A stretch of 17,262 nucleotides of DNA, from positions 1 through 17,262 of the forward strand of contig JAYUGC010000023.1 of NCBI GenBank assembly GCA_043767805.1, given 5' to 3'. Source of the DNA: Pseudomonadota bacterium. GTDB taxonomy: Bacteria; Bdellovibrionota; FAC87; UBA2466. Shown here one piece after another: positions 1 through 15,400 of this stretch. Under the pieces are notes generated by a model. That model was not told the DNA's origin. It searched no databases and saw only the letters and a list, made by a program, of their open reading frames with translations. The translations under genes were made by a program, and so were the position numbers. The first letter of the stretch is position 1, and each line of letters begins with the position of its first letter.

Positions 1-439
1 GCCACAGCGCGGAGGTAAGCTTCGAGGCCGCGTCTTTCAAACCGGCATCTTCCGGCACTTTACCGAGCGTGAGTTGCCCGAAGTACCGGCGCTCGGAAGC
101 GTCCGTTTTCGCCTCGCGGTCCACGAGCTCGGAGCAGTAAGCGGAACCAAGCGCGATGGAAGCGGTCACCACCGGTTGAGTCAGCTGATCGGGCGCATTG
201 TTCGCCGGTAGCCGGTCTTTGAGCTCGTTGAACGCAACGTCCAACGGTAGGCTGTAAGGATCGAGGCCCGTCGCCGAAGCCCATGCCGCCCGCATCTGCC
301 GAAAGTTCATCAGCCCTTCGGTCCCTCCCAACAAAGCTGTTCCCGTCTGAATCTGGGTCGCAAGTTTTTCTCCGCTACATTGAAGGAGAACCAATAGGGC
401 CGCCCCGACGAGCGACAGGCGCCACGGAGATCGTTTCAT
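1..439 (-). CDS. Putative lipoprotein, partner of the DUF1585-like protein (runs off the window start, C-terminus missing)
   Basis: Not in the ORF track. ATG at 439 overlaps the TGA of the upstream gene (ATGA). Manual translation: MKRSPWRLSLVGAALLVLLQ-C-SGEKLATQIQ...GLMNFRQMRAAWASATGLDP...RLPANN...ALGSAYCSELVDRE..., open to position 1. Basic N-terminus, hydrophobic stretch and Cys21 resemble a lipobox. Confidence 0.75.
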   Translation of the reverse strand, partial: MKRSPWRLSLVGAALLVLLQCSGEKLATQIQTGTALLGGTEGLMNFRQMRAAWASATGLDPYSLPLDVAFNELKDRLPANNAPDQLTQPVVTASIALGSAYCSELVDREAKTDASERRYFGQLTLGKVPEDAGLKDAASKLTSALW

Positions 440-1617
440 GGGTTCCTCTTACTGCCCAGGCACTGGGGCAAAACCGCGGTTTTCTCGAAGAGCCGCCGCA
501 TCCGGTACCCATCGGCCTCAAAGCCATCCGCCAAAGTGGCGAGACTGCCGTCGTCCTCGGCGGTAGGCGGCCGCAAGCAAACTTGAGTAAAGACTCGCTT
601 GGCTTGGCAGCGCGAAAAGGCCTTGGTCTCGGAGAGCATTTTCCCCAGCTCGTGTATCCCGTGCCCGCTCGTGGGGCCTCGCCAACCAAGATCCGCGTTC
701 TTGCCCGTCGTCCAAAGATTGATCCAGCTATCGTCGATGGTGACGTAGCCCTGAGCAAATACCTCGCCGTTCTTGTTCATGCGTTTGACGACGCGCTCGT
801 CTTTCACGGTGGTGGGTAGCAGAAAGAAGGCTCCGGTGTCCGAGATCAAGAAGCGATCGTCTGAACGATAAAACGCATAGGCTCCGGCCAAGGCGTCCAT
901 GCCCGCGTGACACCGCCGGCAAGTTTGGGCGTAGGTGCCGGGTAAACCGCCGGGCGCCCGGTCGACATCGCGGTGCACGCGAAAGTCGGGAACCGTTCCA
1001 TCCGCAAGCTCGTCGATGGAGCGGCAAAGAAACTCACGAAAGGCGAACGCAATGGCGCGCCGGTTGGTGCCGTCGTTAAGATGCTGGGATCCCCAGCCGT
1101 CGGAGGTGAGCACCCCCGCGGCTTCCGATCGATTCAAGACCTGAGGGGTTCTTCGCCGTAAGACGAGAGACGGATTGAGCTTCTCGACCTCGGCATAATA
1201 ACGAGGCCCGTACTCGGGCGTCATCTTGTTTCCCACGACTGGGGGACCCAAGTAAGTGAAGTCGTCGAAGAGAATTTCGCGAAAATCCCGATCGTCTCTG
1301 ACCGTGCCCAAAATCATGGCTTCGAAATCCGAGAAATCGCCCTGCGCGTCTTCCGCCCGCCGCCCGAGTGGCGCCGCCCAATGGCGTACGGTGGTGTTGA
1401 TGAAGCCTTCATCTTCGGTGGCGATACGCGCGGCCTTGTCCCATTCGCCGAGTTCGATCCAGCGCTCCATCAGAGGGCGGCGAGGATCAGTGAGCGAAAG
1501 GGGCACACCCGACAGTCGATGAAAAAGCCGCGATGCCTGCTCTTGGGACGCGCTCGGAGCGGCCGAGGCAGAGACCGCCCAAAGTAGAAGAGACACGGCC
1601 AATATCGCTTTAGTCAC
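436..1617 (-). CDS. Secreted DUF1585/DUF1588 (PSD)-like protein with one CxxCH heme c motif
   Basis: GTG start overlapping the upstream stop (GTGA), GGAG RBS, Sec signal peptide (ASA-A). Motifs RLFHRLSG, AAGVLTS, GTNRR, REFLC, RDVDRAPGG, CRRCHAGMD (907-921) and C-terminal FSRCQAKRVFTQVCLRPP...YRMRRLF. Confidence 0.75.
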   Translation of the reverse strand: MTKAILAVSLLLWAVSASAAPSASQEQASRLFHRLSGVPLSLTDPRRPLMERWIELGEWDKAARIATEDEGFINTTVRHWAAPLGRRAEDAQGDFSDFEAMILGTVRDDRDFREILFDDFTYLGPPVVGNKMTPEYGPRYYAEVEKLNPSLVLRRRTPQVLNRSEAAGVLTSDGWGSQHLNDGTNRRAIAFAFREFLCRSIDELADGTVPDFRVHRDVDRAPGGLPGTYAQTCRRCHAGMDALAGAYAFYRSDDRFLISDTGAFFLLPTTVKDERVVKRMNKNGEVFAQGYVTIDDSWINLWTTGKNADLGWRGPTSGHGIHELGKMLSETKAFSRCQAKRVFTQVCLRPPTAEDDGSLATLADGFEADGYRMRRLFEKTAVLPQCLGSKRNP

Positions 1618-2903
1618 TTAACCACTCCTTGATTCGGCCCGAGGAAAGCTCCCTTGGCGTCAAAGCGCACGAGTACGAGGCCTGCCTGGGGACGGCCCAC
1701 CGTCGCTTGCGCGATCCAGTCCGTGCCGTCCGCGACGAGAGATAGGGGAGAGCCGAAAGTTTTTCCCGGAAAGTCCTTCGCCGCGATTCCCGCTTTACCA
1801 AACGCGGGATCGAGACTTCCGTCCGCGGCGAACTTGAAAAACATCAGACTATTTTGGTTGTCCGCGAAGTAACCCCCCATGCCGACAAAGCCACCTCCGT
1901 CGGCGGGCTGAAGCGCTTTCAGCAAGTTCAGTTCATCTTTCTCATCCCGGGATGCCACGACACCCGCTTTCCCGAAAGTGGCATCGAGGCCGCCAAGCTC
2001 ATTTACCCGCGCTATGAAAGTTCTCTCCTTCGAGTTAGCCGTCTCCGTGTACTGGCCGAGAGTCACGTAGCCGCCGGAAGCCGCCGGAGCGACATCCAAC
2101 CAGCGTTCCGTCGGTTGAGGGGTGAAGTCATACTCAATGAGGCCCCCTTTCCCGTACGTGGGGTCGAGCTTACCATCCAAAAAGAAGCGCGTGCTGAAAA
2201 GCCCGCCGGTAAAAGTGGACCCAAAGATTACGAGCGTCCCCTTGGGGCCTGGAAAAACGAATTGAGAGTTGGCGCCCTTGGGAATCGGAAGGTCGACGGC
2301 GCCGTTATGACCGAAGAAGGGATCGATTCCGCCATCGGCATTGAGCTTTATGAGCAGATGCCTGACCACCGTTTGGTCGGTGCTCGCGCCGATGAGGAGC
2401 ATTTCGTCGCCGGGCAGCGGAATAATTTCGGTAGGCTGATCTTCGGTCCCAAAATCGAAATCGATCCGAACCTCGCCACCCTGGCCGAAACTCTTGTCGG
2501 AGATTCCCTTCGCCGAAGTGCGGTAGAGCATGATATCGAAATCTTCCGTCATCCCCGCCCGCTTCACCCCCAGAAAAACCAGTTTCCCTGAGAGCAGGGC
2601 TCGAGGCCGCACGTAAATGCTTTGGCCTTTCAGCGGGAGCGAGATTTGTCCCGCGGTCCCAAACGACATGTCTCTCACCCCATCCAAACCATAGCGAAGG
2701 ACGTCGAACGTGCCAGGGTAGAGGAAAAGAAATTTTGACGTCGTGGCGGCAAGGATAAGCCCATCGCCCGCGCGAAGTAGCGGCGTGCCGAACGCGGCGG
2801 ACTTAGACCAATTAAACTCGACGGCTCCCTGGTCTTTGAAGCCCGCGCCGAGCGCGGAGACGGAAAAAAGGAGCGAGACTAGGAGTCCGATGAAGTAAAT
2901 CAA
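1614..2903 (-). CDS. Secreted delta-60-repeat-like beta-propeller protein
   Basis: TTG start preceded by GGAGG, then a signal peptide. Six repeats of the type R-x-x-x-DG-x-LD-x-x-FG-x-x-G: DGVRDMSFGTAG, KGISDKSFGQGG, DGGIDPFFGHNG, DGKLDPTYGKGG, LGGLDATFGKAG, DGSLDPAFGKAG. Confidence 0.8.
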   Translation of the reverse strand: MIYFIGLLVSLLFSVSALGAGFKDQGAVEFNWSKSAAFGTPLLRAGDGLILAATTSKFLFLYPGTFDVLRYGLDGVRDMSFGTAGQISLPLKGQSIYVRPRALLSGKLVFLGVKRAGMTEDFDIMLYRTSAKGISDKSFGQGGEVRIDFDFGTEDQPTEIIPLPGDEMLLIGASTDQTVVRHLLIKLNADGGIDPFFGHNGAVDLPIPKGANSQFVFPGPKGTLVIFGSTFTGGLFSTRFFLDGKLDPTYGKGGLIEYDFTPQPTERWLDVAPAASGGYVTLGQYTETANSKERTFIARVNELGGLDATFGKAGVVASRDEKDELNLLKALQPADGGGFVGMGGYFADNQNSLMFFKFAADGSLDPAFGKAGIAAKDFPGKTFGSPLSLVADGTDWIAQATVGRPQAGLVLVRFDAKGAFLGPNQGVVK

Positions 2904-3043
2904 GATGCCTCCGACGACGAGGTAACCAGGCTAACACGGGACGAGAGAGCCGAGGCACTCGCGTCGAGTCATGCTTTTATGAAGAAAAAGCTTGGTTGCA
3001 AAGAGGACGCACAGCCAGCGATAAACGTGATGTTTAAGATACC

Positions 3044-4096
3044 TTAAGCGGATCGCGCGAGGACGATTTTGATCCGTTTTCCGCCGAGCCGAAGACTCAG
3101 CGCGCCAACTCCCCAGCAGGCGATCGCCATCAAGCCGGGATAGAGCACCAAGCCGGCCCATGGAGAGAGCCGAGGGCTCACCCACTCTCCTAAGCGTTCG
3201 GCGAGGGAAACGTGAAAGAGATAAATCCAGAGCACGCCTTTTGAAAAACTCTGCACTAGACCGTATTTCGAAAAAGTGAGCCGCGCCGCGGCCCATTCAC
3301 ATCCCGCCATCAAGACGCAGAAAAATCCGGCGAGTCCCACGACGAATCCGAGAGACGGTTGAAAGATGGTGGCTCCCCAGAGATGCCCTTCATCGAGGTC
3401 GATGTGGAAGTAGCCGAGAGAGAGCGTCGCGACGACCGTCCCAAGTCCCACTAGACCCAGCACGGTGGCAAACCAGGGGGGATCGTCGAGCCGAAGCCGT
3501 AGGTCAGCGATGAAAAACCCGAAGACGACGATGAAGAACCACGGGAAAAACGGCCAATAACCGTCCGCCAGCCGGCTCCCCACTAAAAAAATGGAGAGAA
3601 GCGTGTCTTTCCCCGCAAATAAGGTCCGGAGCCACGGCGTGAGAAGCAGAGTTACCGCCCCAAGTCCGTAAACCAAATAGAGGTTGGTGTACTTGAGTAA
3701 CAAGGTGATGAGCAAAAAGGAGAAGCCAACGAATTGTAAAACGTCCCACTGAAACGTTTCGCCCGCACCCCAAGCGAGAAAATTCATGAGGAAACCGAGC
3801 AGCGTGATGGCGATGCTCACTTTCAAGATGGTGACGAAGGAGTACCCTTCGATCTTCAAGCCGGACCAGTACCGCACGAAATGAAGCCGAAGATTGGCGC
3901 CCGCCGTGGCGGGAAGGCTCATGGGGAAAATACCCAGCAGAGCAGCGCTAGCCAGATAGGGAACGATCGGGTTCGCCATGTTGATCTGTTCGTCACCGTT
4001 CGCAACCAAAGCGAAGGCCGAGTGGATGAAGACCATCATGAGGACGCAGAGAAATTTCGCGACGTCCAGGGCTGGCCATTCGTGGGAGGCTTTCAT
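3044..4096 (-). CDS. DUF1624 / heparan-alpha-glucosaminide N-acetyltransferase-like multi-pass membrane acyltransferase
   Basis: GAGG RBS. N-terminal ALDVAKFLCVLMMVFIH, WDVLQFVG, YWPFFPWFFIVVFG and LWIYLFH motifs. About 9-10 hydrophobic segments. Confidence 0.75.
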   Translation of the reverse strand: MKASHEWPALDVAKFLCVLMMVFIHSAFALVANGDEQINMANPIVPYLASAALLGIFPMSLPATAGANLRLHFVRYWSGLKIEGYSFVTILKVSIAITLLGFLMNFLAWGAGETFQWDVLQFVGFSFLLITLLLKYTNLYLVYGLGAVTLLLTPWLRTLFAGKDTLLSIFLVGSRLADGYWPFFPWFFIVVFGFFIADLRLRLDDPPWFATVLGLVGLGTVVATLSLGYFHIDLDEGHLWGATIFQPSLGFVVGLAGFFCVLMAGCEWAAARLTFSKYGLVQSFSKGVLWIYLFHVSLAERLGEWVSPRLSPWAGLVLYPGLMAIACWGVGALSLRLGGKRIKIVLARSA

Positions 4097-4308
4097 AGGG
4101 AAGACCTCTATTCTAACGGACGCAAGTCAAACGCGCTAATACCTGACACCCAAAGTCAGTCCGTGTTTCATCTTTAGCCCCTCTCAAAAGGCGAGCGATG
4201 TTTTTTGTCATTAGCGTAGCCCGGAGAGAGCCGGGCAAGACAAACCTTCAGGGGTCCAAGCTGACGCAAAGCATGGTAATTGAGGCCATTTGTGGGTATA
4301 CCTTGGCG

Positions 4309-5157
4309 ATGACCCGTTCCCTCATTGGTGGTTTGCTCGCTCTTGCCTTGGCCTTGCCTCTTCCGGCCCGAGCTTCAGTCACGGAAAAGCACGAGCTGAT
4401 CCCTTTTCGATCCGGGGAGTACTACGCGCTACCGGCCCTGGCTGCCGCCAATCTTTTTCTCATTTTCGACGTCTCTCCCTCGCATTCCCATTGGAGCGGA
4501 GGGGTGCTATTCGACGGCCCCATCCGGGACGCCCTCAGAGTGAAGACCCGGTCCGAGAGAGATGGGGTCGCCCTCGCGGGGGATCTCATGCTCTACACGC
4601 TGATTGCGTATCCAGGGGTGGTCGATGCCGGGCTCGACGCCGCTTGGTCGAAGCACGACATGAGAATAGGCACCCAGCTCTTTCTCATCAACATGCAGGC
4701 CTATCTGCTTTCGGGTGTCGCCTCCTTCGTGGTGAAGAAATTGACCGCGAGACAGCGGCCATTCGAGCAAGAGTGCAACGGCGATCCCAATTACGACATC
4801 GGCTGCCACCAGAAGGATAGCCGTCTCAGCTTTTATAGCGGGCACGCCGCCTTTTCCTTCACGGCGGCGGGACTCATTTGCGCCCATCACGAAAATCTCG
4901 AGCTTTGGGGGCAGATGACGCCTTGTTATGTTTCCATCGGAGCCGCGGCCGCGGTCGGCCTCACCCGCATTATCGCGGACCGCCACTACGCGACCGATGT
5001 GTTAGTCGGTAGCCTCGTCGGCTGGCTCTCGGGCTATACGATTTCACGCCTCTATCATTACAAAGAGGAAAGCGCCGCCGGTAAAGTGCAGATGTCCATT
5101 GTTCCCGTCGTGTACCCCGAAGGGCTCGGCGTGAACTTCGCCTTCGCCGGGTTTTAA
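4309..5157 (+). CDS. PAP2 family phosphatase (membrane-associated, signal peptide)
   Basis: All three PAP2 motifs are present: KKLTARQRP, SFYSGH, TRIIADRHYATDV. Preferred start is ATG 4309 (MTRSLIGGLLALALALPLPARA, signal-like) rather than 4198. Confidence 0.88.
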   Translation: MTRSLIGGLLALALALPLPARASVTEKHELIPFRSGEYYALPALAAANLFLIFDVSPSHSHWSGGVLFDGPIRDALRVKTRSERDGVALAGDLMLYTLIAYPGVVDAGLDAAWSKHDMRIGTQLFLINMQAYLLSGVASFVVKKLTARQRPFEQECNGDPNYDIGCHQKDSRLSFYSGHAAFSFTAAGLICAHHENLELWGQMTPCYVSIGAAAAVGLTRIIADRHYATDVLVGSLVGWLSGYTISRLYHYKEESAAGKVQMSIVPVVYPEGLGVNFAFAGF

Positions 5158-6176
5158 GTCTTAGGAAAGAACGCGAGACGGCGGTGGCGCTCCAGAAAAT
5201 ACGCCAGAGCCTGCCCTGCCCCGTCTCTAAGTAAAAACCGTCCAGCGAAAGTCCAAAGACGCGAGCGAGGGACCAGAGGAAAAAGACCTCGGCTCAGTCG
5301 ACGCAAGAGCGCGCGCCGGAGACCACTCACGCGTTCTTCGAGCTCGGTCAAAACGAAAGCGGGAACTTCGGCCCGGCTTAGAGTCAGCACGAACCAGGCC
5401 GCCGAGGAAAAACGAAAGCGTTCGGCCCGGGCGAGGAAACGAGACCAATCAATCGTCTCTTTTTGTATCAGTTGGCGAACGTCCAGAAGCCAAAGCGGCG
5501 ATTCGACGATGTGTTGAACTCCGGCGTGACGAATGAGGTAACTCAGATTGTCGGTCGCTTCCAGTACACGCACGGGGCAATCCAGGTCGGGAAAGACGAC
5601 GCTCTCGCTACGGCGCCAGTAGCCCTCGACTTCGGAAGCCGTCTCTCCGGCCAAAAGTCTCGCGTGCACTTCCACCACGGGATTTCCGTCGCGCGAGAGC
5701 TCGGTCCGAAAACGGCCGGGATAATCCCGGCCCACGGCCCGAAAGCCCTGGGCTATAAAGAGCGAGAGCGTCCGCGCGAAATCAGCGTCCCGCACCAGGA
5801 GATCGATGTCGGTCATGGGCCGTCTCAAACGTTCGGAGTAGTAGCGGCGGCCCAGCTCGGCACCTTTGAGGAGCAAAACGTCGACGCGTTCGCGCTTCAA
5901 TATCCCCAGAGCGAGCGAAAGCTCGTGATCGAGAAGCGCCTGCACCATGCGGCCTCGCCGAAGCTCTGATTCAAATTTTTCCTGGGTGCTCGCCGGCAGC
6001 TCGCCATTCCACGAACAGCTATCCAAGGTCAGAAGAAAGGGAAGCGTCGCGTGAAGGGAGCGGGAATAATCCAAGGCGGCGGCCCAACGGTTCGCGTCCG
6101 CGACAAAGCCGGGTTTCGCCGGAACTTTGCCCTCGATCAAAGCGAGAACGACCATTGAAAGCTGTCGCGCCGTCAA
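5154..6176 (-). CDS. Nucleotidyltransferase family protein (NTP_transf_5-like)
   Basis: LLLKGAEL...YY...RRPMTDIDLLV, VEVH and YLIRHA...WLLD motifs. Likely TTG start at 6176 overlapping the peptidase stop (TTGA), with GAGG upstream. Confidence 0.85.
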   Translation of the reverse strand: MTARQLSMVVLALIEGKVPAKPGFVADANRWAAALDYSRSLHATLPFLLTLDSCSWNGELPASTQEKFESELRRGRMVQALLDHELSLALGILKRERVDVLLLKGAELGRRYYSERLRRPMTDIDLLVRDADFARTLSLFIAQGFRAVGRDYPGRFRTELSRDGNPVVEVHARLLAGETASEVEGYWRRSESVVFPDLDCPVRVLEATDNLSYLIRHAGVQHIVESPLWLLDVRQLIQKETIDWSRFLARAERFRFSSAAWFVLTLSRAEVPAFVLTELEERVSGLRRALLRRLSRGLFPLVPRSRLWTFAGRFLLRDGAGQALAYFLERHRRLAFFPKT

Positions 6177-6616
6177 AGCCAGCGCCTCAACCACGATAGG
6201 GCTCGCGTGGCCCTTCGCCAAAAGGGAGCGCCGAATTTTCCTGAGCGAAGACTTAAAAAGGAAACGCGCGCAATGAGCCTATCGAGAGCGCCTCGCGAGA
6301 AAGGACGAGCGGCCCCGCCACCGGGCGATTTCAGAGAGACCACCTTGCCCCAGATTTGCTTGGTTTCAAACGACTCGGAGAGAAACCCGGAATCGCCTTT
6401 CACAATCCAATGAGGTCCCTCTGCAGCGAGCAGCCGATGCAAAATCCAATCGCCGTGCCCGTCGCGGCAAAGCACGAGATCTCCCGCCTCCGCTTTGGCG
6501 TCGGGGGAAGCAAGCCACTCCACGCCGACGAGACTTCCGGGGCGAAGAAAAGGGCACATACTCTCGCCTTCCACCCGAAGCCACGGAGCGGAATCAGGAC
6601 TTGAGCTTGGCGGCAT
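6173..6616 (-). CDS. S24/S26 family peptidase (soluble signal-peptidase-like), candidate leader peptidase
   Basis: LRVEGESMCPFLRPG (catalytic Ser), GDLVL, ILHRL, IVKGD and IWGKV motifs. No N-terminal TM anchor. Start probably ATG 6616; the 6670 extension overlaps the precursor core. Confidence 0.82.
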   Translation of the reverse strand: MPPSSSPDSAPWLRVEGESMCPFLRPGSLVGVEWLASPDAKAEAGDLVLCRDGHGDWILHRLLAAEGPHWIVKGDSGFLSESFETKQIWGKVVSLKSPGGGAARPFSRGALDRLIARVSFLSLRSGKFGAPFWRRATRALSWLRRWL

Positions 6617-6764
6617 TACAGGCGGGCACTCCACCGGTGGAAACCTTTCTGGAAGCGGTGGTCGTGCCATTGCACAAGGCCGCCACTGCGGTCAGAGGTT
6701 CCGTTTTTACGACGGGCTTTCGGTACGGCTTCTTTTCCGTATCGACTTTTTTCTCTTCAGACAT
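6594..6764 (-). CDS. 56-aa RiPP-like precursor peptide: MSEEKKVDTEKKPYRKPVVKTEPLTAVAALCNGTTTASRKVSTGGVPACNAAKLKS
   Basis: Read manually; absent from the ORF track. ATG at 6764 overlaps the kinase end, GGAGA lies upstream, TGA at 6594-6596. The leader has the YxxP RRE-binding motif (KPYRKPVV), the core has two Cys, and it lies between maturase genes. Confidence 0.85.
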   Translation of the reverse strand: MSEEKKVDTEKKPYRKPVVKTEPLTAVAALCNGTTTASRKVSTGGVPACNAAKLKS

Positions 6765-7704
6765 GGTGACTTCTTTCTCCCTGAATTAAGGGCCAAAATC
6801 CGGAATCCATGCGGAAATGAAGGCGGGAGATTCCTGCCGGCGCCGAGGCAAAATGGATCGCCAAATCGAAACGCGTTTCGATGAAACTGTCGAAACCGGC
6901 CATCATGGTGCTCGCCAGTAAAGATCGCACCCCTTCGGCAACGCTCAAGGACTCCACTTCGTGGGCGGCGGACTGAGAGAGCGAATAAAGTCCCGCGAGA
7001 GGCACTTTCGCGGGAACCGGCGCTTCCTTCGTCCACGCGGAGCCGAGAGGTGCAGCGTGAAGCCAGTATCCGCTTTCCGTTTTCTGAATGATGGCGGCGT
7101 CGTCACCTAAAATCACGGCCAGGGGATCGGCTTCGGAAATGAGGCGTACCGTCGTCGATTTTCCCGCCCCGCTTTGCCCGAAGAAAAGATAACCTCGGCC
7201 CGCCCGTTGCACGCTAGCGGCGTGAACGAGAAAAGCGGAGGTTTCCAGTAAAAGATCGGGCAGCGTCCAGCGGAGCAGATTCAAGATCGAGTCCGAAAGC
7301 TCTTCGGGATTCACGCCACCGACCACGGAAAGCAATCGCTCACCGGGGATGGCGGGAAACCGGCGAGCCGCAAAGTCTCTTTGTACCACCCGATCGCCCC
7401 GGCAATCGAACTCCGGATCCGCGTCTTCCCAAAGATCCGCCGCTCCGCCCTCTTTTGGCTCGACGAAAAGAACCGCTTGGGCCGGCAAATCGGAAAGGTA
7501 CTGCCGGAAGTACCGCTTAATTTCCGTCGCTAACGCGGAGGAGCTGGTAACGAAAGCCAGAGTAAGTCCGGCGAGCTCGATTCCGATCCACTCTCCCTGC
7601 CCACCCACCTCGGGAAGCGAGCGAGCTGCGAGCCAATCAAAAAGAAAAACCCGGCGCGGGCTCGTCGGCACTTGGGAAGAGAGATGAGAAGTGGAGTGAA
7701 GCAA
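6757..7704 (-). CDS. HPr-kinase-related P-loop kinase (ScmC-like / peptide kinase)
   Basis: LVHAASV, Walker A GQSGAGKSTT, ILGDD acidic pair and PLAGLYSL. Start uncertain (TTG 7704 or GTG 7671). Confidence 0.8.
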   Translation of the reverse strand: MLHSTSHLSSQVPTSPRRVFLFDWLAARSLPEVGGQGEWIGIELAGLTLAFVTSSSALATEIKRYFRQYLSDLPAQAVLFVEPKEGGAADLWEDADPEFDCRGDRVVQRDFAARRFPAIPGERLLSVVGGVNPEELSDSILNLLRWTLPDLLLETSAFLVHAASVQRAGRGYLFFGQSGAGKSTTVRLISEADPLAVILGDDAAIIQKTESGYWLHAAPLGSAWTKEAPVPAKVPLAGLYSLSQSAAHEVESLSVAEGVRSLLASTMMAGFDSFIETRFDLAIHFASAPAGISRLHFRMDSGFWPLIQGERSHHV

Positions 7705-7839
7705 AAAATTCTAAAAAGTTTTGAGCCCGAGTATAGCGCGCGCCCGAGAGCCTGCCTATCGCCTTGCTTGCCATCCCGCGTTGGAACGGGCCCGGCAACT
7801 CGCCTTGCCCTGGCGGATCGCCTTTGTTTTAATGTCCCC
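7705..7839. promoter_or_regulatory. Divergent promoter region of the RiPP-like cassette
   Basis: Minus strand: -10-like hexamers TATACT (7730-7735) and TAGAAT (7708-7713). Plus strand: TTGCCC (7805-7810), 17 bp, TTTAAT (7828-7833, preceded by TGn), ending 6 nt before the PqqD ATG. Confidence 0.45.
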
Positions 7840-8100
7840 ATGACACCAGTGCGAGAGCCCAATCTCCCTTGGAGAGAGGTAGGCGGCCGAGCCATCATTC
7901 TTTCTCCGAAGCACGGCAGCATCCACGAGCTAAACGACGTCGGCACTTTGCTTTGGACGCATGCCGACGGCGAGACCTCGATCGAAAGCCTCGCGGAGAC
8001 ACTCGCCGCTTCCTTCGATATCGAGCCCGCGACCGCCGAGGCGGACGCCCGCGTATTTTTCGCCGAGCTGGAAACTCTCGGCCTCGTCCGCTTGCATTAG
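7840..8100 (+). CDS. Stand-alone PqqD family RiPP recognition element (RRE), 86 aa
   Basis: WREVGGRAIIL...IHELNDVGTLLWTHADGETSIESLAETLAASFDIEPATAEADARVFFAELETLGLV matches the PqqD pattern LN-x-x-G-x-x-(I/L)W...DG...F...L...GL. Start ATG 7840 rather than 7672. Confidence 0.92.
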   Translation: MTPVREPNLPWREVGGRAIILSPKHGSIHELNDVGTLLWTHADGETSIESLAETLAASFDIEPATAEADARVFFAELETLGLVRLH

Positions 8101-8107
8101 GAGCTCC

Positions 8108-9151
8108 ATGTCCATCTTGTCCGACTTCCGCGAAGTCACCCAGGAAAAGCTCATCCCGCTGCAGGTGACCCTCGAGCTCACTTACCGGTGCAACGAGCGT
8201 TGCGGGCATTGTTATCTCGCGACTTATGACGACCGCGCGGACGGACGCCCCACGTTGACGCTTTCCGAATGGCAAAGAATTTTAGACGAGCTGGCTTTGG
8301 CCAAGACCCTTTATCTCATCCTCATCGGCGGCGAGGCCATGATGCACCCTCAGTTCTGGGGCATCGCCGAGTACGGGGCCAAGCGAAACTTCGTTTTGAG
8401 TCTCATCACCAACGGCCTCTTAGTCGACGAGCGCGCGGCCGATCGCTTTAGCGATCTCAATTTTTATCAAGTGACGGTCAGCTTCTATTCCCTCGATCCC
8501 GCGATCCACGATCGCATGACCCGCCGAGTGGGCTCGCACGCGGCGACTCAGGCCGCCATCAAGCGGCTTCAGAAAAAGGGCGTCGGCGTCGGTTTGAACT
8601 GTTTACTCACCCGGGAAAATATCGAAGGCTGCTTCGAGCTCGAAGCCTGGGCTAAAGCGAATGGTCTCGTCATTCAGTTCGATCCCATGGTCACGCCAAA
8701 GTCAGACGCCTCGCTCGCCTCGACGGTAACGCGCGCCTCGCGCGCACAGCTGACAACGTATTTCACCACTTTGAAGCAGCTCGGCCGAGGGCACGGCCCG
8801 CAGCCCAAGGCGGAAGCAGTGGATCCCGTGTGCAATGCCGGCCGCGGCAAATGCGCCGTGAACCCTTACGGAGATTTACTCACCTGCCTCGAAGTCAGAG
8901 AGGCCATTGGGAACTTGCGCGAGAAATCTTTCGCCGATTTATGGCACTCCCCTAAAGCGCAAGAGTTGCGCGGCTACCGCGTCCGCGATTTGAAGTTCGA
9001 CTCGTCTTGCGGCGACGGCGCCTTCTGCGATCACTGTCCCGGCATGGCGGGCGCCGAGGTGGGAGACCGTATGGCGCCGATTCCCTTCCTCATGGAACTT
9101 GCCCAAATCAAGCGCCAGGTTTTCGAGTCCGACTCGCCGGGCCAGCCATAG
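8108..9151 (+). CDS. Radical SAM/SPASM-domain peptide maturase, 347 aa
   Basis: AGGAG RBS and ATG 8108. Radical SAM motifs: LELTYRCNERCGHCY (CxxxCxxC), GGEA, ITNG, HDRMTR..GS. SPASM-like tail: CNAG...NPYGDLLTC...IGNL...LW...C-x5-C-x2-CPG. Confidence 0.93.
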   Translation: MSILSDFREVTQEKLIPLQVTLELTYRCNERCGHCYLATYDDRADGRPTLTLSEWQRILDELALAKTLYLILIGGEAMMHPQFWGIAEYGAKRNFVLSLITNGLLVDERAADRFSDLNFYQVTVSFYSLDPAIHDRMTRRVGSHAATQAAIKRLQKKGVGVGLNCLLTRENIEGCFELEAWAKANGLVIQFDPMVTPKSDASLASTVTRASRAQLTTYFTTLKQLGRGHGPQPKAEAVDPVCNAGRGKCAVNPYGDLLTCLEVREAIGNLREKSFADLWHSPKAQELRGYRVRDLKFDSSCGDGAFCDHCPGMAGAEVGDRMAPIPFLMELAQIKRQVFESDSPGQP

Positions 9152-9316
9152 CTCCCGCCGAGTGTTCGAAAGTTAGCTGACCCCCCGCCCAATCTTTTTC
9201 CACTCCCTAGCCTAACCCCTTGGATCAGCGGCGGTTTCAAATTGTCGGGGGATCTTCATCCTTAAGCGCTACGCATGGAGTTAAACTAGGATCATGAAGT
9301 AATTCACGCTTTTTTA

Positions 9317-9368
9317 GATTTCAGGACCATCGCCTGCCTTCCGAGAGGATTAGGTATGGTCCCGAATC
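9317..9368 (+). other. Predicted long stem-loop upstream of the giant gene
   Basis: GGACCAT (9324-9330) pairs with ATGGTCC (9356-9362). Outer extension GATTTC/GAATC; inner stems GCCTG/TAGGT and CCT/AGG. Confidence 0.45.
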
Positions 9369-9404
9369 ATTTGTGGGACGTCTGTTGCAGAGGAACGTTT
9401 AGCG

Positions 9405-12400
9405 ATGAATTTCGTTCGGCAAACATTTTCGCGCGCGCCCCTGTTTTTGATCGCGGCGATCCTGTTCTCCGCGCAGACGGCTTTTGCCGCGTGCACGACC
9501 GGCACGAACGCGTGTTGCCTTGCGGGCGGTGGTACGGGCGATAGCTCCGCCACTCGTCGCACCTGGCAGCCTACCTCCGGCACCGTGACCTGGATCGATA
9601 CCGCCAACTGGGCCACGGCGAACATTCCCGACACGAGTGTCGAAGAAGCTTACATTCAATCGGACTGGCAAATTCCCGCGTGGCCGAACACCAGCTATTC
9701 GCTCGCTTGCGTTCAGGTGCCTTCGGGCGCCTTTACCGCGACTCCGGCGGCGGTCTCGGTCACCATGGCCAATACGAGCGCGGCCGTCACCATGTCTGCC
9801 CCGACGGCGACCGTGACCATGGCCGCCCCAACGGCAACCATCACGGGCAACACGCCTTCACTCAATGTGACGTTTCAGGCCGGATCCGCGATTACTTTTA
9901 CCATCCCGAGCGCCACCATCACCATGACGAGCGCAAACCCGGGCGTCGTGACCTGGACGGCACACGGAATGGTATCGGCCGATACCCCCGTTCAGTTCAC
10001 CACCACAGGGGCGCTCCCGACAGCGATCGCCCAAAACACCACGTATTACGTCAGAAATATCGCTGTTAATACTTTCCGATTGGCTTCAACACCGGCCGGC
10101 GCCGCCATGAGTACCCTTGCGGGAACTCAGTCTGGCATCCATACCGGCCGTCAAGCTCTGCAAATCAATTGGACCGGCCATGGTTTGGCGGCGAGCGATC
10201 CCGTGGTATTTACCAACACCGGTGGCGCTCTTCCTACAGGCCTCACCGCGGGGACAACCTATTACGTGGCCTCCCTTCCCGCGTTGACCGCGAATACCTT
10301 TTCAGTTTCCGCGACGGCGGGCGGTGTTGCTATCGTTTCCACTTCGACGGGCTCAGGCACTCAAAAGGGTTTTAAGAGGGAAGTGGTCACTTGGACCTCT
10401 CATGGGCTCGCGGCAAACGACCCGGTCGTCTTTACGAACTCGGGCGGTGCGCTCCCCACCGGAATTACGGCCGGCACCACCTATTACGTGGCGGCCACTC
10501 CCGCCCCGACAGTCAATACGTTTGCCATCTCGGCGACGGCGGGGGGCACGGCCATCTTTGCGACATCGGACGGGACAGGAACTCATACCGGGTCGAAAAC
10601 GCTCATCTGGACATGGACGGCGCACGGGCTTCTCGCCGGCGCGCCCGTAAGCTTTACGAACTCGGGTGGCGCTCTGCCTGCTCCGCTCGTCTCCGGAACC
10701 ACTTATTACGTGGCCGCCTCCCCGGCGCCTGCAGCCAATACTTTCTCGGTGGCAACCACGGTGAACGGCACGGCCATCATGGGAACTTCGGCCGGCACCG
10801 GAACGCATACCGGACGAAAGCCCTCTTTGGTCACGTGGACCGCTCACGGTCTGTCTGCGGGATTCACGGTTAGCTTCACGAACTCAGGCGGCGCTTTACC
10901 CACGCCGTTCGTGGCCAGCACGGTTTATTACGTTGCCGCCGTCCCGGCTCCCACCGCGAATACTTTTTATGTGACTGCCACCGCGGGCGGTGAAGCCATC
11001 ATCAACACCGTGGCCGGCTCCGGAACTCATACTGGCAATAAGACTACGACGATTACTTGGACCGCTCATGGCCTTGCCGCTGGAACTCCGGTGAAATTCA
11101 CGAACTCGGGCGGCGCTCTGCCTTCTCCCTTGGTCGCGGGGACCATATATTACATCGCGAGCACTCCTGCGCCGGCAGCCAACACCTTCTCTGTGGCGGC
11201 GACTGCCGGTGGCGACGCCATCATCAACACCTCGGCGGGCTCCGGAACTCATACGGGGTACAAACCGACCACCGTGACCTGGACGGCGCATGGACTCACG
11301 GCCGGAGCCCCCGTGAGATTTGCGGGAACAATGCCGACGGGTCTTACTGCCGCCACCATTTATTACGTTGCCGCCCTCCCCGCCCCCGCGGCGAACACCT
11401 TTTCGATAGCAGCGACGAACGGGGGCGTCGCTCTTTTTAGCACTGGCACCGGTGCCACGATTACCAACGACGCTTTCTTCTTGAGCGTTGCCTCCGAGTA
11501 TTTCGAGAATCTCAACGCGGGCTCGCTCACCACGAACGCGAACTTTTTCATTCGCATGAACGGCGCCTACGCGCAGAAGTTCAACAACGTAGACCCCATC
11601 AACAACCTCATCATCTCGAACGGCACCACCGTCACCATGCCGAGCAATTTTACGATTAGCTCGAGTATGGTCATCGATTCGGGCGCGGGCACCACTCTGA
11701 TCGATGGCGGACTGACCCTAAGCTATACCGGCACCGCTTTAACCATTCCCGCGAGTGCCACGGTCGAAGTGGGCAGTGGCGCTACCTTCACGGCTATGGG
11801 CGGAATCATCGTCAACGGCGTTTTGAAAATCGACGCCGGCGCCCGTGTCCTCATCGGCAACGGCAAAACCCTGCAAGTCAATGCGGGCGGCCTTCTCCAA
11901 ATGATCGGAACTTCGGGTAACGTCGCCACCCTCGATGCCGCCCAAGGCGGATCGACTTACGCCCTGAACGTGGCCGGTTCGATCAACGCCAACTATTTCT
12001 CCATCAGCCGCACTACGGCCAGTGGTTTGAATATCACCACGGGTGGCTCCGACTCGATTCAAACCCTTTCGAACGGTGATTTTCACTACCCGGCCACTGG
12101 CGGCGCGGCGATTACGCTCAATACCGCCAAGAATTTACCAAGCCCCGATCCGAGCGGCCTAGGCTTCTTCGACGAGTTTGCCTACGGCAACACGAAGAAC
12201 ATAGACGCCACGAGCTATACGGGAACCGCTGTCACCATCAATAGCTACTCGGGCCTAGGCGGAGTGGCGAACGAAGTCGATCCAGGAAGTAAGATCGCCT
12301 GGGGAACGACCGCGGCCTTAGCCCTTCAGGTCACTAATCGTACCGCCTCGGGCGCTCCCGCCTCTACTATCGCAAAGGGTGCGGCAGCTACGCTCTTCGC

Positions 12401-15400
12401 CACCTACGGATTCGCCCTGAATGGAACTGGCACCAGTACCGACCTGACTTCCCTCACGCTCACTTTGGATGGCGTCAACGTCGCCTCCGACGTGAATTAC
12501 ATACAGGTCTTCAACGACACTTCGGCGAACTGCGCCTATAACTCCGGCGTCGATACGCAAATCGGTAGCAACTTGACGATGACGGGCAGCCCGCCCACCG
12601 CGACCCTCACGATTCCGGCGAGCACCCTCTCTCTCTCAAATACGACGCAAAAGTGTTTGCACGTATTGCTGTCGACCAACTCGAACGCGCGCACCGGCGA
12701 TACGCTCCAGATGACTATTTCTGGAACCGCGGACGTCAGCAATAGCCAAGCGTATAGTTTTTCGAACTCGGGGGGCCCTCCGATCTCGGGCACCGTCTCC
12801 ACCATCACGGGTACCGCGGTCAAGAAGTGGAACGGCGGCAACGGTGCCATTGGCGCCTCACAAAACTGGAACGCCAACGGAGGCGACTGGACGCCCACCA
12901 CCGCGCCGGTCTCGACGGACGATTGTCAGATCGGTCCCGCACACTCGTACCCGGCAGTGAATGGCAACTACACTTGTACAAACGTGACGCTCCCGACGAA
13001 TGGGCGCATGAACTGGGCGAGTACCGCCAATACCCTCACCGTTCTGGGTGCCTTGTCCATCGGCTCGACCTACACTTTCTTGAACGCGACGACTGGCAAC
13101 ATCACCATGGGTGCGACGACCGCCTGGCAGGCCATCGACGCCGCCACCGCGATCCCCGGAAACCTAATCATCAACAATACCTACAACACCGACGGGCTGG
13201 TGGCGATTAACACCGACCTTACCGTGAACGGAAACCTGACCCTCACGCGCGGTATCCTCACGGTAACTACCGGACATACGCTTACCGTACTCGGCACCAT
13301 TACCGTGAACGGCGGTACCCTCGACATCGACCCGGGCGGCACACTCAACCTCGGCGACGGCCGTACGATGACCATTAATACCGGCGGTACTCTCAACATA
13401 GTGGGTGACGCGACTCAATCAGCGAGGTTTACCTGCAACGGCACGGCCACCGGGTGCGCGATTTCCGTCGCCGGCACCGGCACCATCGCCGCTCGCTACT
13501 ATTCCATGAGCCGCATGGCGGTTGCCGGCCTTACGATTGCCTCGACCGCGAGCATCGATGCCACGAACCATCTGCAAGACGGCTCGTTTACCTATCCCAT
13601 CGGTGCGAGCCCGATCCTGCTGACGTTGAATCGTCAGGTCCCGACCAATGCCTTGGCCAACATGACGTTCGACACGGCTAGCTCGGCGGCCACCAGCCCT
13701 AAGTCCATTCTCACCAGTACGTCGGCGGGGACGCTTACCATTTCCGCTTACAGCGGCGATCTCACGAACTGCTGCACGACGGCGCCGACCTACCTGGTTT
13801 CCTGGACAGCCCCCACGACGACTTTGAAGCTGACTCTCGAGGCTTCCGCTCCCGGCGCAGTCAACCAGGGTGCCACGGGCGTGACTCTTGCCCGCTTCGG
13901 CCTGCAACAGACTCAAGCCGGCGCCTACAGCGATACCGACGTCACCTCGATGAAGGTGACGATGCAGGGCAGTCAGAACTCGGGCGATATTTCCGCGGTT
14001 CGGCTTTACTACGACTCCGCTTGCAGCGGAAGCGGCGGCGTTCAAGTGGGCAGTACGCTAACCTTCTCGGGTAGCCCGCCGACTGCCAACTTCACGAGTC
14101 TGACCTCGGCGACCGTCCAGTATAGTTTGACCTCTCCGCCGAAGCGCTGTTTCTACGTGCAGGCGGACGTCGCCTCCGCGGCGACCGTGGCCAATACCAT
14201 TGGCGTCAGCATTCAATCGAACGCGGATGTCGTTAACAGCATCGGTTATTCGTTCAACGGCTCTTATGCACCGCCCCTCGCGGCCGGAACGTCAGTCATC
14301 AGCGGTAATTCCATCACCTGGACGGGCGCGACGAACACGGACTGGAATACGACCTCTAACTGGAACTTGGCCCGCGTCCCGTTGACGACTGACAACTGCA
14401 TTATCAACTCGGTCACCAACAACCCGGTCATCAGCGCGGCGACCGCCAACTGCAAGTCCCTCACCATCGGTAACGGCACGCTCACGATCAATACGGGCCA
14501 AACCGTGGAGGTGTACGGTTCGTTCACCAACACCGGCACTCTGACGTTGACCGGCACGGCCTCGGTCACCATTCGGGACAACGGCTCAACAACGACCAAC
14601 CAGACGCTGCAAAGTTCTTCCCCTCTGACTAAAGTGGTCTTCAACAAGACGGCCGGCGGTTACGTCTACATCGGTAACCAAACCCTCACCATTGACCCAC
14701 TTACCATCCCGGCGAGTCAGAACTTCACATTCGACGTGCGTAACGGGAATACACTCACGCTTCCCTCGGGCGCTACCGTTACCTCCGCCACGTTCCAGGC
14801 GGACGACGCGGCGCTGGTAAAAATAGGTAACGCACAGACTTTCCTCGTAAACGGCGGTACCCTTTACTCGAACGGCGTGAACGACGGCTATCCCCAGCTC
14901 ACCACGAACAAATCCAAGTTCACGGTAAACGGCTCCGGAACCTGGTCCCTTACCGCCACGAGCGGCACCATCAACATGACCGGATTCCTTTTGGATTATC
15001 TGGACACGAACGGTTTTCAAATCAACGGAACGACCGGTGTCACGAACTTCAACGGCGGCCAGTTCACTAACTTGTCGAACACCTACGCGAGCGTGAAGGC
15101 TCTCCAAGTCAATACGAGCGGCAGCTTCCCCGCCTCGGGAGCGTTCGACTACATCGGCTTCAACTGGGGCGCGAACAATACGCCTCCCGGACCCGCGGCC
15201 GCCTACCTACTTGCGAGCTCCACGGGGTGCTCGAGCCGAACGCTCAATCTCACAAACTGGTTCGGCGACTTCTTCTACGCCGTGGACATGCCGGTCCCGT
15301 CGACTAAGATTTCGAACACGAGCTGTAACATTACGATGACGGCGGCTGCTTCCGCCGTCACTCTGACCCAGTTCAAGGTCACGCCGTATAACGCGAAGGT

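Follow-up and report, generated by a model that had tools for sequence, protein, structure and literature searches.

The stretch of DNA analysed here, referred to as the window, comprises 17,262 nucleotides of contig JAYUGC010000023.1 (NCBI GenBank assembly GCA_043767805.1, Pseudomonadota bacterium; GTDB lineage Bdellovibrionota, FAC87, UBA2466). Between a kinase gene and a peptidase gene, it carries a 56-codon open reading frame (ORF) missing from the gene track, and the question raised by the locus is whether this ORF encodes a genuine peptide and what the neighbouring enzymes make of it. Judged by the sequence comparisons, the ORF is protein-coding and conserved, and the peptide represents a new precursor family that is absent from curated libraries and skipped by gene callers. 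On balance, it is read as the precursor (A) of an uncharacterised pathway for a peptide made on the ribosome and modified after translation (RiPP), in which the enzyme set of the LPP (linear polyphosphorylated peptide) and phospho-lasso systems is joined by a radical SAM (rSAM)/SPASM enzyme. This reading is held with modest confidence, and every chemical step in it is inferred.

6594..6764, minus strand: precursor peptide gene, 56 amino acids plus stop, supported by ORF translation, conservation, synteny, and codon-position bias.
6777..6781, minus strand: GGGAG run resembling a Shine-Dalgarno sequence, 12 nt 5' of the peptide ATG, read from the sequence, with a putative function as ribosome-binding site.

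The ORF translates as MSEEKKVDTEKKPYRKPVVKTEPLTAVAALCNGTTTASRKVSTGGVPACNAAKLKS. The first-pass annotation had described a hidden ORF, missed by the track and overlapping both neighbours; it was located exactly at this place, with the translation as written. The peptide gene shares its first 8 nt, from the ATG on, with the end of the kinase ORF and its stop (ATGTCTGA), and the 3' end of the gene overlaps the S24 peptidase ORF by 23 nt with a peptidase start at ATG 6616 and by 77 nt only with a start at 6670. Since the relatives of the peptidase begin only about 8-17 residues ahead of their G-x-S-M-x-P motif, it probably starts at ATG 6616, the frame open to 6670 being an over-call. The peptide is laid out as a leader of about residues 1-29 containing Y14-x-x-P17 and a core from about residue 30 containing C31-N32-G33, R39-K40, C49, and the C-terminal S56.

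When 40 relatives were searched in all six frames, clear orthologues were recovered in genomes G001 (E = 1.1e-18), G004, G020, and G035 (9.5e-8), and a second, diverged copy of the peptide both in the window's own genome (C134, 7e-4) and in G001. The peptide genes of the window and G001 differ at 12, 15, and 29 sites in codon positions 1, 2, and 3, respectively (20 synonymous and 18 non-synonymous codon changes), and those of G004 and G020 at 15, 10, and 41 sites (28 synonymous and 18 non-synonymous); among orthologues in three related genomes, synonymous codon changes amounted to 15-28 per pair. Because the relatives occupy the same syntenic place and the differences fall mainly on third codon positions, the ORF is regarded as coding and not as a chance frame. 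A scan of positions 5000-9500 for promoters and terminators remained at the level of shuffled sequence (one promoter-like site vs. a mean of 0.9, and eight terminator-like sites vs. 7.6). A 129-aa ORF on the plus strand (6495-6884) runs antisense to the peptide gene and its junctions and is probably a by-product of GC-rich sequence.

The family is widespread in the phylum. A profile based on an alignment of 11 peptides (A1) matched 47 of the 401 sampled Bdellovibrionota genomes, belonging to 30 of 204 genera, and 71 representatives in a library of 1.84 billion proteins at E <= 0.001. Five of the 71 (P0007, P0040, P0049, P0056, and P0062) are long proteins (573-3,464 aa) in which short matches recur many times and were rejected as chance Thr/Gly-rich 'CNG' repeats. 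The broader alignment A2, with 58 representatives, excludes these five long repeat proteins and several over-long or odd small matches (P0014, P0015, P0025, P0032, P0035, P0045, P0061, P0065, P0067, P0068, P0070, P0072, P0074, and P0077). Only six peptide clusters, the window's own among them, were retrieved by a word search of a collection of 5.8 billion. Scanning of a genome contig collection with A1 gave nine loci, assigned to Pseudobdellovibrionaceae, Oligoflexia, Bacteriovoracaceae, and Bdellovibrionota, and a scan with another narrow alignment, A7, gave four short metagenome contigs with distant family members. No Pfam or NCBIfam model matched the window peptide, and no NCBIfam model matched any of 28 diverse relatives at E <= 0.1, which agrees with the earlier remark that the peptide belongs to no recognised precursor family.

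Across the 58 representatives of A2, P17, C31, and C49 are invariant, Y14, E22, G33, and K40 are conserved in at least 90%, and 57 sequences end in Ser or Thr; the more closely related set A1 additionally has invariant N32, R39, and S56. The YxxP motif, both Cys residues, and the terminal Ser (or Thr), which the first-pass annotation had singled out, are all among these positions. The leader motif [Y/W]xxPx[L/V/I/F/A], as defined in PMC13381572, is present throughout the 58 representatives to the extent that Tyr and Pro are kept, with V or I two residues after the Pro. The family pattern begins with a Lys-rich N-terminus and continues as Y-x-x-P-x-[IV]-x-[ST]-E and a short hydrophobic stretch ending in [AG]-A-x, and the core reads C-N-G-x3-G-G-R-K-x-S/T-x-G-x-P-x-F-C-x3-[KR]-L-x-S. 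The distant members P0072, P0074, and P0077 retain K40 and lack C-N-G and the Arg. The window copy has no aromatic or acidic residue past Leu24, as had been noted for its core; this does not extend to the relatives, in which Phe often precedes the second Cys and Asp or Glu is sometimes present. Similarly, the twin Cys-Asn pairs exist in the window copy, but only the first (C-N-G) is a family feature, the residue after the second Cys being N, L, D, T, S, Q, G, or R in relatives. NxxcB-type peptides, to which the Cys-Asn pairs had been likened, are said to carry repeated, conserved Asn-x-x-Cys motifs. This analogy failed, as the conserved motif has Cys before Asn and is not N-x-x-C, and the second Cys-Asn is variable (the NxxcB family is named in PMC11851443).

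The genes surrounding the peptide gene, which include a discrete RiPP recognition element (RRE), are the following.

6757..7704, minus strand: HprK-like (PEPCK-fold) P-loop kinase, 315 aa, assigned by NCBIfam, alignment, and an AlphaFold2 model.
6173..6616, minus strand: archaeal/ER-type signal-peptidase-I-like S24/S26 peptidase, the presumed leader peptidase, assigned by Pfam, NCBIfam, and an alignment of 13 relatives.
5154..6221, minus strand: NTP_transf_5 (PF14907) nucleotidyltransferase, Pfam 4.6e-35, syntenic in relatives.
7840..8100, plus strand: discrete PqqD-family RRE, 86 aa, divergent from the kinase, Pfam PqqD 1.7e-15.
8108..9151, plus strand: radical SAM/SPASM enzyme, 347 aa, 8 nt past the PqqD stop, Pfam Radical_SAM 5.9e-19 and SPASM 9.4e-10.
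9405..17262, plus strand: 5' part of a giant, secreted protein with repeats, 2,619 aa before the contig breaks off, Propeptide_C25 2.7e-6 at residues 2159-2286.

The order on the minus strand is kinase, peptide, peptidase, and nucleotidyltransferase, with the RRE, the rSAM/SPASM enzyme, and the giant ORF on the divergent plus strand. The precursor postulated in the first-pass annotation proved to be real and conserved, with a PqqD RRE gene and an rSAM/SPASM gene as neighbours (profile matches and synteny). The kinase was matched by the NCBIfam models ScmC (2.6e-11), HprK_rel_B (8.2e-9), and hpr-ser (0.003). Invariant positions in 18 relatives include H161, the P-loop G-x-S-G-x-G-K-x-T (G176, S178, G179, G181, K182, and T184), and D201-D202. 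The best Foldseek matches of its AlphaFold2 model (pLDDT 90.9) are ATP-PEP carboxykinases (E 1.4e-8, TM 0.4-0.5), the fold of which is shared by HprK. The features of an HPr kinase-like protein, namely the P-loop GxSGxGKS/T, a following Asp-Asp, and a PEPCK-like fold, are all found in it. The peptidase was matched by Pfam Peptidase_S24 (3.8e-6) and by the NCBIfam models sod_Ni_protease (3.6e-5) and sigpep_I_arch (3.4e-4); its 13 relatives have invariant G-x-S-M-x-P, H-R, and G-D motifs, corresponding to the Ser-His-Asp triad of archaeal/ER-type signal peptidases. The true start of the nucleotidyltransferase may lie downstream of TTG 6221. Searches of PDB sequences with the kinase and with the nucleotidyltransferase gave nothing useful. 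NCBIfam matches of the RRE, both below their cut-offs, were ScmD (2.5e-8) and lasso_PqqD_Bac (3e-7). In 12 relatives of the rSAM enzyme, C28-x3-C32-x2-C35 and also C242, C260, and C307 are invariant.

The peptide and these enzymes recur together. A tblastn search with the window proteins covered 20 loci from as many further genomes and located the rSAM enzyme in 19, the kinase in 18, PqqD in 17, the nucleotidyltransferase in 14, and the S24 peptidase in 12. Three more loci have the nucleotidyltransferase and one has a weak S24 match according to Pfam, and the two genomes still without a kinase yielded one to a kinase profile. In the six regions fetched, the peptide always lies inside the same enzyme set, in one of two gene orders: kinase-peptide-S24-nucleotidyltransferase with divergent PqqD-rSAM, or kinase-PqqD-rSAM-peptide-S24-nucleotidyltransferase. 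Three of the four short metagenome contigs with distant members also have the kinase and/or the rSAM gene beside the peptide. The second cassette of the window's own genome (G000:C134; L014:8575-12305 and flanks) has the latter order and encodes a paralogous peptide of 59 aa; next to it lie genes for five glycosyltransferases of the GT4 family, a methyltransferase of the FkbM type, and a polysaccharide-export protein with SLBB. Two PqqD genes are present in loci of the largest family, f10 (L066:5231-5536 and 6801-7079), and in L064, a class I methyltransferase gene adjoins the rSAM gene, whereas the window has no such gene. The rSAM enzymes of the f10 loci (L057-L059, L061, and L066; type B) are 21-25% identical to that of the window vs. 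34-69% in other loci, with 40-70% for type A; two rSAM lineages may serve one peptide family.

Among the known systems closest to the cassette is the LPP set of Bacillota clusters (Paenibacillus alginolyticus lppA-K-B-S-D-N; Popov et al., Nat Commun 2026, PMC13381572). As described in the main text of that paper, this set consists of a precursor, the HprK-like kinase LppK, the RRE LppB, the archaeal-type signal-peptidase-like LppS with a Ser-His-Asp triad, an exporter, and the NTP transferase LppN; phosphorylation and leader cleavage by LppK, LppB, LppS, and LppN, with a YxxP leader, have been proven. The same text gives the LPP leader motif as YxxPxVLxHQxIxFETxxS, with cleavage after Thr-1 and polyphosphorylation of core Ser3, and reports that the clusters frequently occur inside loci for capsular polysaccharide (PMC13381572). 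The window cassette likewise brings together an HprK-like kinase, a discrete PqqD RRE, a signal-peptidase-I-like Ser-His-Asp enzyme, and an uncharacterised NTP transferase around a YxxPx[V/I] leader, and the second cassette of its genome also has a polysaccharide context. In contrast to LPP, it adds an rSAM/SPASM enzyme (19 of the 20 loci), while the text of PMC13381572 contains no occurrence of the words radical, rSAM, or SPASM; the absence of any other cross-linking enzyme, which characterises linear products, therefore does not apply to it. The remainder of the LPP leader consensus (..VLxHQxIxFETxxS) is not found in the window family, and position +3 is Asn, within A-A-x-C-N-G. The core has two invariant Cys residues and a terminal Ser/Thr, whereas the LPP C-terminus is variable. 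Further differences are that no MsbA-like exporter is encoded in the window (L064 and L066 have an ABC-2 type pair), that the host phylum is Bdellovibrionota and not Bacillota, and that a giant C25 gene is linked.

Phospho-lasso systems share other features with the cassette. According to reviews, the HPr-kinase homologues PadeK, ThcoK, SyanK, and PsmK transfer phosphate, in many cases more than once, to the conserved Ser at the C-terminus of lasso precursors while these are still linear; PadeK and ThcoK use a His-Lys-Asp-Asp motif, and PsmN adds a hexose to the phosphate (PMC9266682, PMC8498205). The C-terminal Ser, a His-Lys-Asp-Asp kinase, a nucleotidyltransferase of the kind that decorates phosphate, and a B1-type RRE, predicted in the window to read YxxP, are common to the window cassette and to paeninodin (PadeK), ThcoK, SyanK, and pseudomycoidin (PsmK/PsmN) clusters. 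The cassette differs in lacking a lasso cyclase, a B2 protease, and an acidic residue for ring closure, and in having an rSAM enzyme and a serine peptidase instead. The SPASM rSAM enzyme, the Cys-bearing core, and the RRE recall sactipeptides and ranthipeptides (SkfB, CteB), but the similarity is weak (E 1.5e-8 and 6.4e-6, respectively), the RRE is a separate protein, and the kinase, nucleotidyltransferase, and signal-peptidase-like enzyme are foreign to those systems. ScmC and ScmD of the SynChlorMet (SCM) cassette in NCBIfam are the best matches of the kinase and the RRE, and ScmE and ScmF are among the rSAM matches; however, the bit scores lie far below the equivalog cut-offs (ScmC 43.4 vs. 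125, ScmD 34 vs. 100, ScmE and ScmF 70.2 and 59.9 vs. 400 each), and the window cassette has one rSAM enzyme only. No paper on the SCM cassette was found in the literature search, and listings, abstracts, and the passages cited here gave no publication that describes the window's kind of cassette together with an rSAM enzyme or a C25 protein. The best description of the system is that of a relative of the LPP/phospho-lasso tailoring module extended by an rSAM enzyme, with a precursor family outside the curated libraries and a PorU-like giant protease linked to it.

The following course is proposed for the pathway. The Lys-rich leader would bind the discrete PqqD RRE through Y-x-x-P-x-[VI]. The complex was modelled with ESMFold2 from alignments A3 (PqqD) and A2 (peptide) in three runs with three controls, and gave an ipSAE of 0.52 vs. 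0.00 for the best control, a partner pLDDT of at least 52, and at least 95% of contacts common to the runs, which the tool grades as 'weak support'; the mark applied to the complex score is reached by 116 of 157 solved complexes and by 2 of 215 mismatched pairs. Likeness to solved RRE-leader complexes may contribute to this score. The HprK-like kinase would then phosphorylate a hydroxyl residue, most likely the C-terminal Ser/Thr (S56), as lasso-peptide kinases do. The terminal residue appears to be the better candidate by analogy because the LPP phosphosite has no counterpart here, position +3 being Asn, and because a Ser/Thr end is near-universal, as in lasso systems. The PF14907 enzyme would extend the phosphate with a sugar or a nucleotide, and the rSAM/SPASM enzyme would make one or two intramolecular cross-links through C31 and C49, the likeliest products being thioethers to carbons of the loop that bears the conserved G-R-K. 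The RRE-guided Ser-His-Asp signal-peptidase-like enzyme would cut the leader around A28-L30 and leave a core of about 27 residues starting x-C-N-G. LPP spacing, with Tyr at -16, puts the cut after A29, and position -3 is then Val in the window and Phe in many relatives, which may recall the Phe-3 of LPP. The product would finally act together with the giant PorU-like C25 surface protein from the same locus.

Thioether cross-links are the most plausible rSAM chemistry, since two invariant Cys residues accompany a SPASM enzyme. Nearby Thr, Asn, or Ser residues, which the first-pass annotation had proposed as ring partners, are conjectural in this role. The combination by which sactipeptides and ranthipeptides are recognised, a SPASM rSAM enzyme beside a Cys-bearing core, is present (Pfam domains, invariant Cys, two core Cys). 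The nearest solved structures of the rSAM enzyme are SkfB (1.5e-8), PqqE, SuiB, and CteB (6.4e-6).

A number of observations weigh against the proposed pathway. The datasets listed for positions 5154-9151 contain no RNA and consist of four sediment-metagenome DNA runs from one study. The mark on the complex score was reached with 0.60 or less, the range of the 0.52 of the leader-RRE model, by only 18 of the 157 solved complexes and by both mismatches. The LPP phosphosite, core Ser3, corresponds here to the invariant Asn32, and the phosphosite is a guess between two precedents, Ser3 of LPP and the C-terminal Ser of lasso precursors. The kinase falls below every curated NCBIfam cut-off, and HprK itself is absent among the 48 fold matches listed for its model. 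The best curated matches of the rSAM enzyme are MftC (111.5 bits, cut-off 265) and NirJ, followed by StsB (84.6 bits, cut-off 625); its similarity gives thioethers no preference, because the PDB matches mix enzymes forming thioether, C-C, and Lys-Trp bonds, and the two Cys residues could simply form a disulfide. No transporter was found among the 10 main window ORFs scanned or in the giant ORF, and an ABC-2 type pair of ATPase and permease occurs in only two of the four Pfam-annotated loci, L064 (9162-10618) and L066 (2735-4187).

The giant ORF adjoins the cassette after the rSAM gene and has a signal peptide, Thr/Ala-rich repeats, and the Propeptide_C25 match. Its full-length relatives (1,834-2,503 aa; L057:581-8035, L066:8197-15705, and L064:10664-16165) end in a Peptidase_C25 domain (1e-61 to 1.2e-76). 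The best match of this domain is PorU (PDB 6za2, 7.1e-19), the C-terminal signal peptidase/sortase of type IX secretion, vs. 8.5e-7 for gingipain R, and the G-H-G and catalytic Cys motifs align. The giants resemble PorU in this domain with its His and Cys motifs and differ from it in that the domain ends a repeat protein of 1,400-3,500 aa with a Gly-rich-Cys, membrane-helix, and basic tail of its own. Bdellovibrionota are not known to use type IX secretion. In L057, L066, and L064, the last 60 residues or so of the giants run from a Gly-rich segment, in which one Cys is invariant (GGGC[S/Q]), through a hydrophobic helix to a basic tail. Such a C-terminus resembles the MYXO-CTERM and GlyGly-CTERM sorting signals and suggests a dedicated sorting protease.

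Some C25 domain was found in 123 of the 401 sampled genomes. C25 open frames of at least 1,400 aa were counted among the matches listed (150 of 221), with the ten remaining peptide-bearing genomes searched again; they occur in at least 40 genomes, 37 of them among the 47 peptide-bearing ones, although the kin genomes are not independent and such counts overstate the statistics. Among the matches listed, three further genomes of the 401 have a giant without a peptide, and the repeat search of the ten peptide-bearing genomes found no giant C25. At least 28 of the peptide-bearing genomes have a C25 domain no more than 16 kb away from the peptide gene and on its contig. The arrangement varies: in L057, the peptide starts 12 nt past the giant stop, and in G356, the peptide and kinase genes have the giant between them. 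Because the linkage persists through such rearrangement of gene order, a functional partnership of the peptide cassette and the giant C25 protein is likely.

Four other explanations were weighed against the proposed pathway. That the ORF is a chance, untranslated frame at an operon junction would fit its shortness, its overlap with both neighbours, and its omission by gene callers, but it deserves almost no credence, given the conserved synteny in many families of the phylum, the third-position bias, and the retention of the same peptide across rearranged gene orders. A lasso peptide precursor might be suspected from the YxxP leader, discrete PqqD RRE, kinase, PF14907 nucleotidyltransferase, and C-terminal Ser, all of which occur in paeninodin-type clusters. 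This candidate was rejected and is extremely improbable, since the core contains no Asp or Glu for a macrolactam and since no Asn-synthetase-like cyclase or transglutaminase-like B2 protein was found by Pfam/NCBIfam in the 10 main ORFs (1..9400) or in four annotated relatives. It is a more serious possibility, though still an unlikely one, that the precursor and pathway are as proposed and the Cys residues only form a disulfide or bind metal, while the rSAM enzyme performs other chemistry, such as epimerisation, a C-C or C-N cross-link at Lys40/Arg39 or Asn32, or C-terminal chemistry as in MftC. MftC, the best curated match, works on a residue at the C-terminus and has a discrete PqqD-like protein as its partner, PqqE and SuiB are among the PDB neighbours, and K40 is kept in the distant members that have lost C-N-G and Arg. 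Nevertheless, all rSAM matches are far below the family cut-offs, the 58 representatives have no conserved aromatic residue for Lys-Trp or Glu-Tyr links, and invariant Cys pairs in the cores of SPASM substrates are the usual mark of thioether classes.

Slightly more credible, if still tentative, is the view that the peptide is mainly a partner of the giant C25 protein and that the cassette only prepares it. The peptide could be a loop-presenting inhibitor or regulator, with R-K between the bridged Cys residues as bait; alternatively, the PorU-like domain could cleave or ligate it as a substrate or nucleophile. The frequency and proximity of giants in peptide-bearing genomes, the rarity of giants without a peptide among the matches listed, the link kept in L057 and G356 despite their differing gene orders, and the closeness of the C25 domain to the sortase-like PorU, with His and Cys motifs retained, all speak for it. 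Against it stand the ten peptide-bearing genomes without a giant C25 and the window genome's second cassette, which has no giant within 20 kb; moreover, linkage does not demonstrate contact, and the specificity of PorU is not for Arg/Lys. It is accordingly put forward with reserve, as a possibility short of the favoured reading, that the cassette produces, instead of a free antibiotic-like RiPP, a partner dedicated to a giant PorU-like C25 protein at the cell surface. In its boldest form, the cross-linked peptide would be a ribosomal linker, the phospho-glycosylated or nucleotidylated C-terminal Ser of which would be tied to the envelope polysaccharide, and the sortase-like C25 domain would ligate the giant or its cargo to a free amine of the peptide (N-terminus or Lys40). 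This would be an anchoring scheme analogous to type IX secretion, built with a RiPP. In a milder form, the bridged G-R-K loop might serve as a tight, substrate-like protease regulator.

The remaining genes of the window, at positions 436-5157, encode a DUF1585 (PSD2) protein, a beta-propeller-like protein with delta-60 repeats, a membrane protein of the acyltransferase-3 family, and a phosphatase of the PAP2 type. They were rejected as parts of the cassette, as none is syntenic with it in the six relatives checked.

Under the favoured reading of the ORF as precursor of an rSAM-extended pathway, the peptide is the missing substrate of a widespread, unstudied modification cassette common in predatory Bdellovibrionota. 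A kinase/RRE/signal-peptidase-like module that was described in Bacillota only in 2026 would here be wired to radical SAM chemistry, and the conserved positions Y14, P17, C31, N32, G33, R39, K40, C49, and S56 offer targets for mutation. No paper on a role of ribosomal peptides with surface proteases was found in literature listings and abstracts. The persistent linkage to the giant protease suggests that, in these bacteria, ribosomal peptides take part in the maturation, anchoring, or control of surface proteases.

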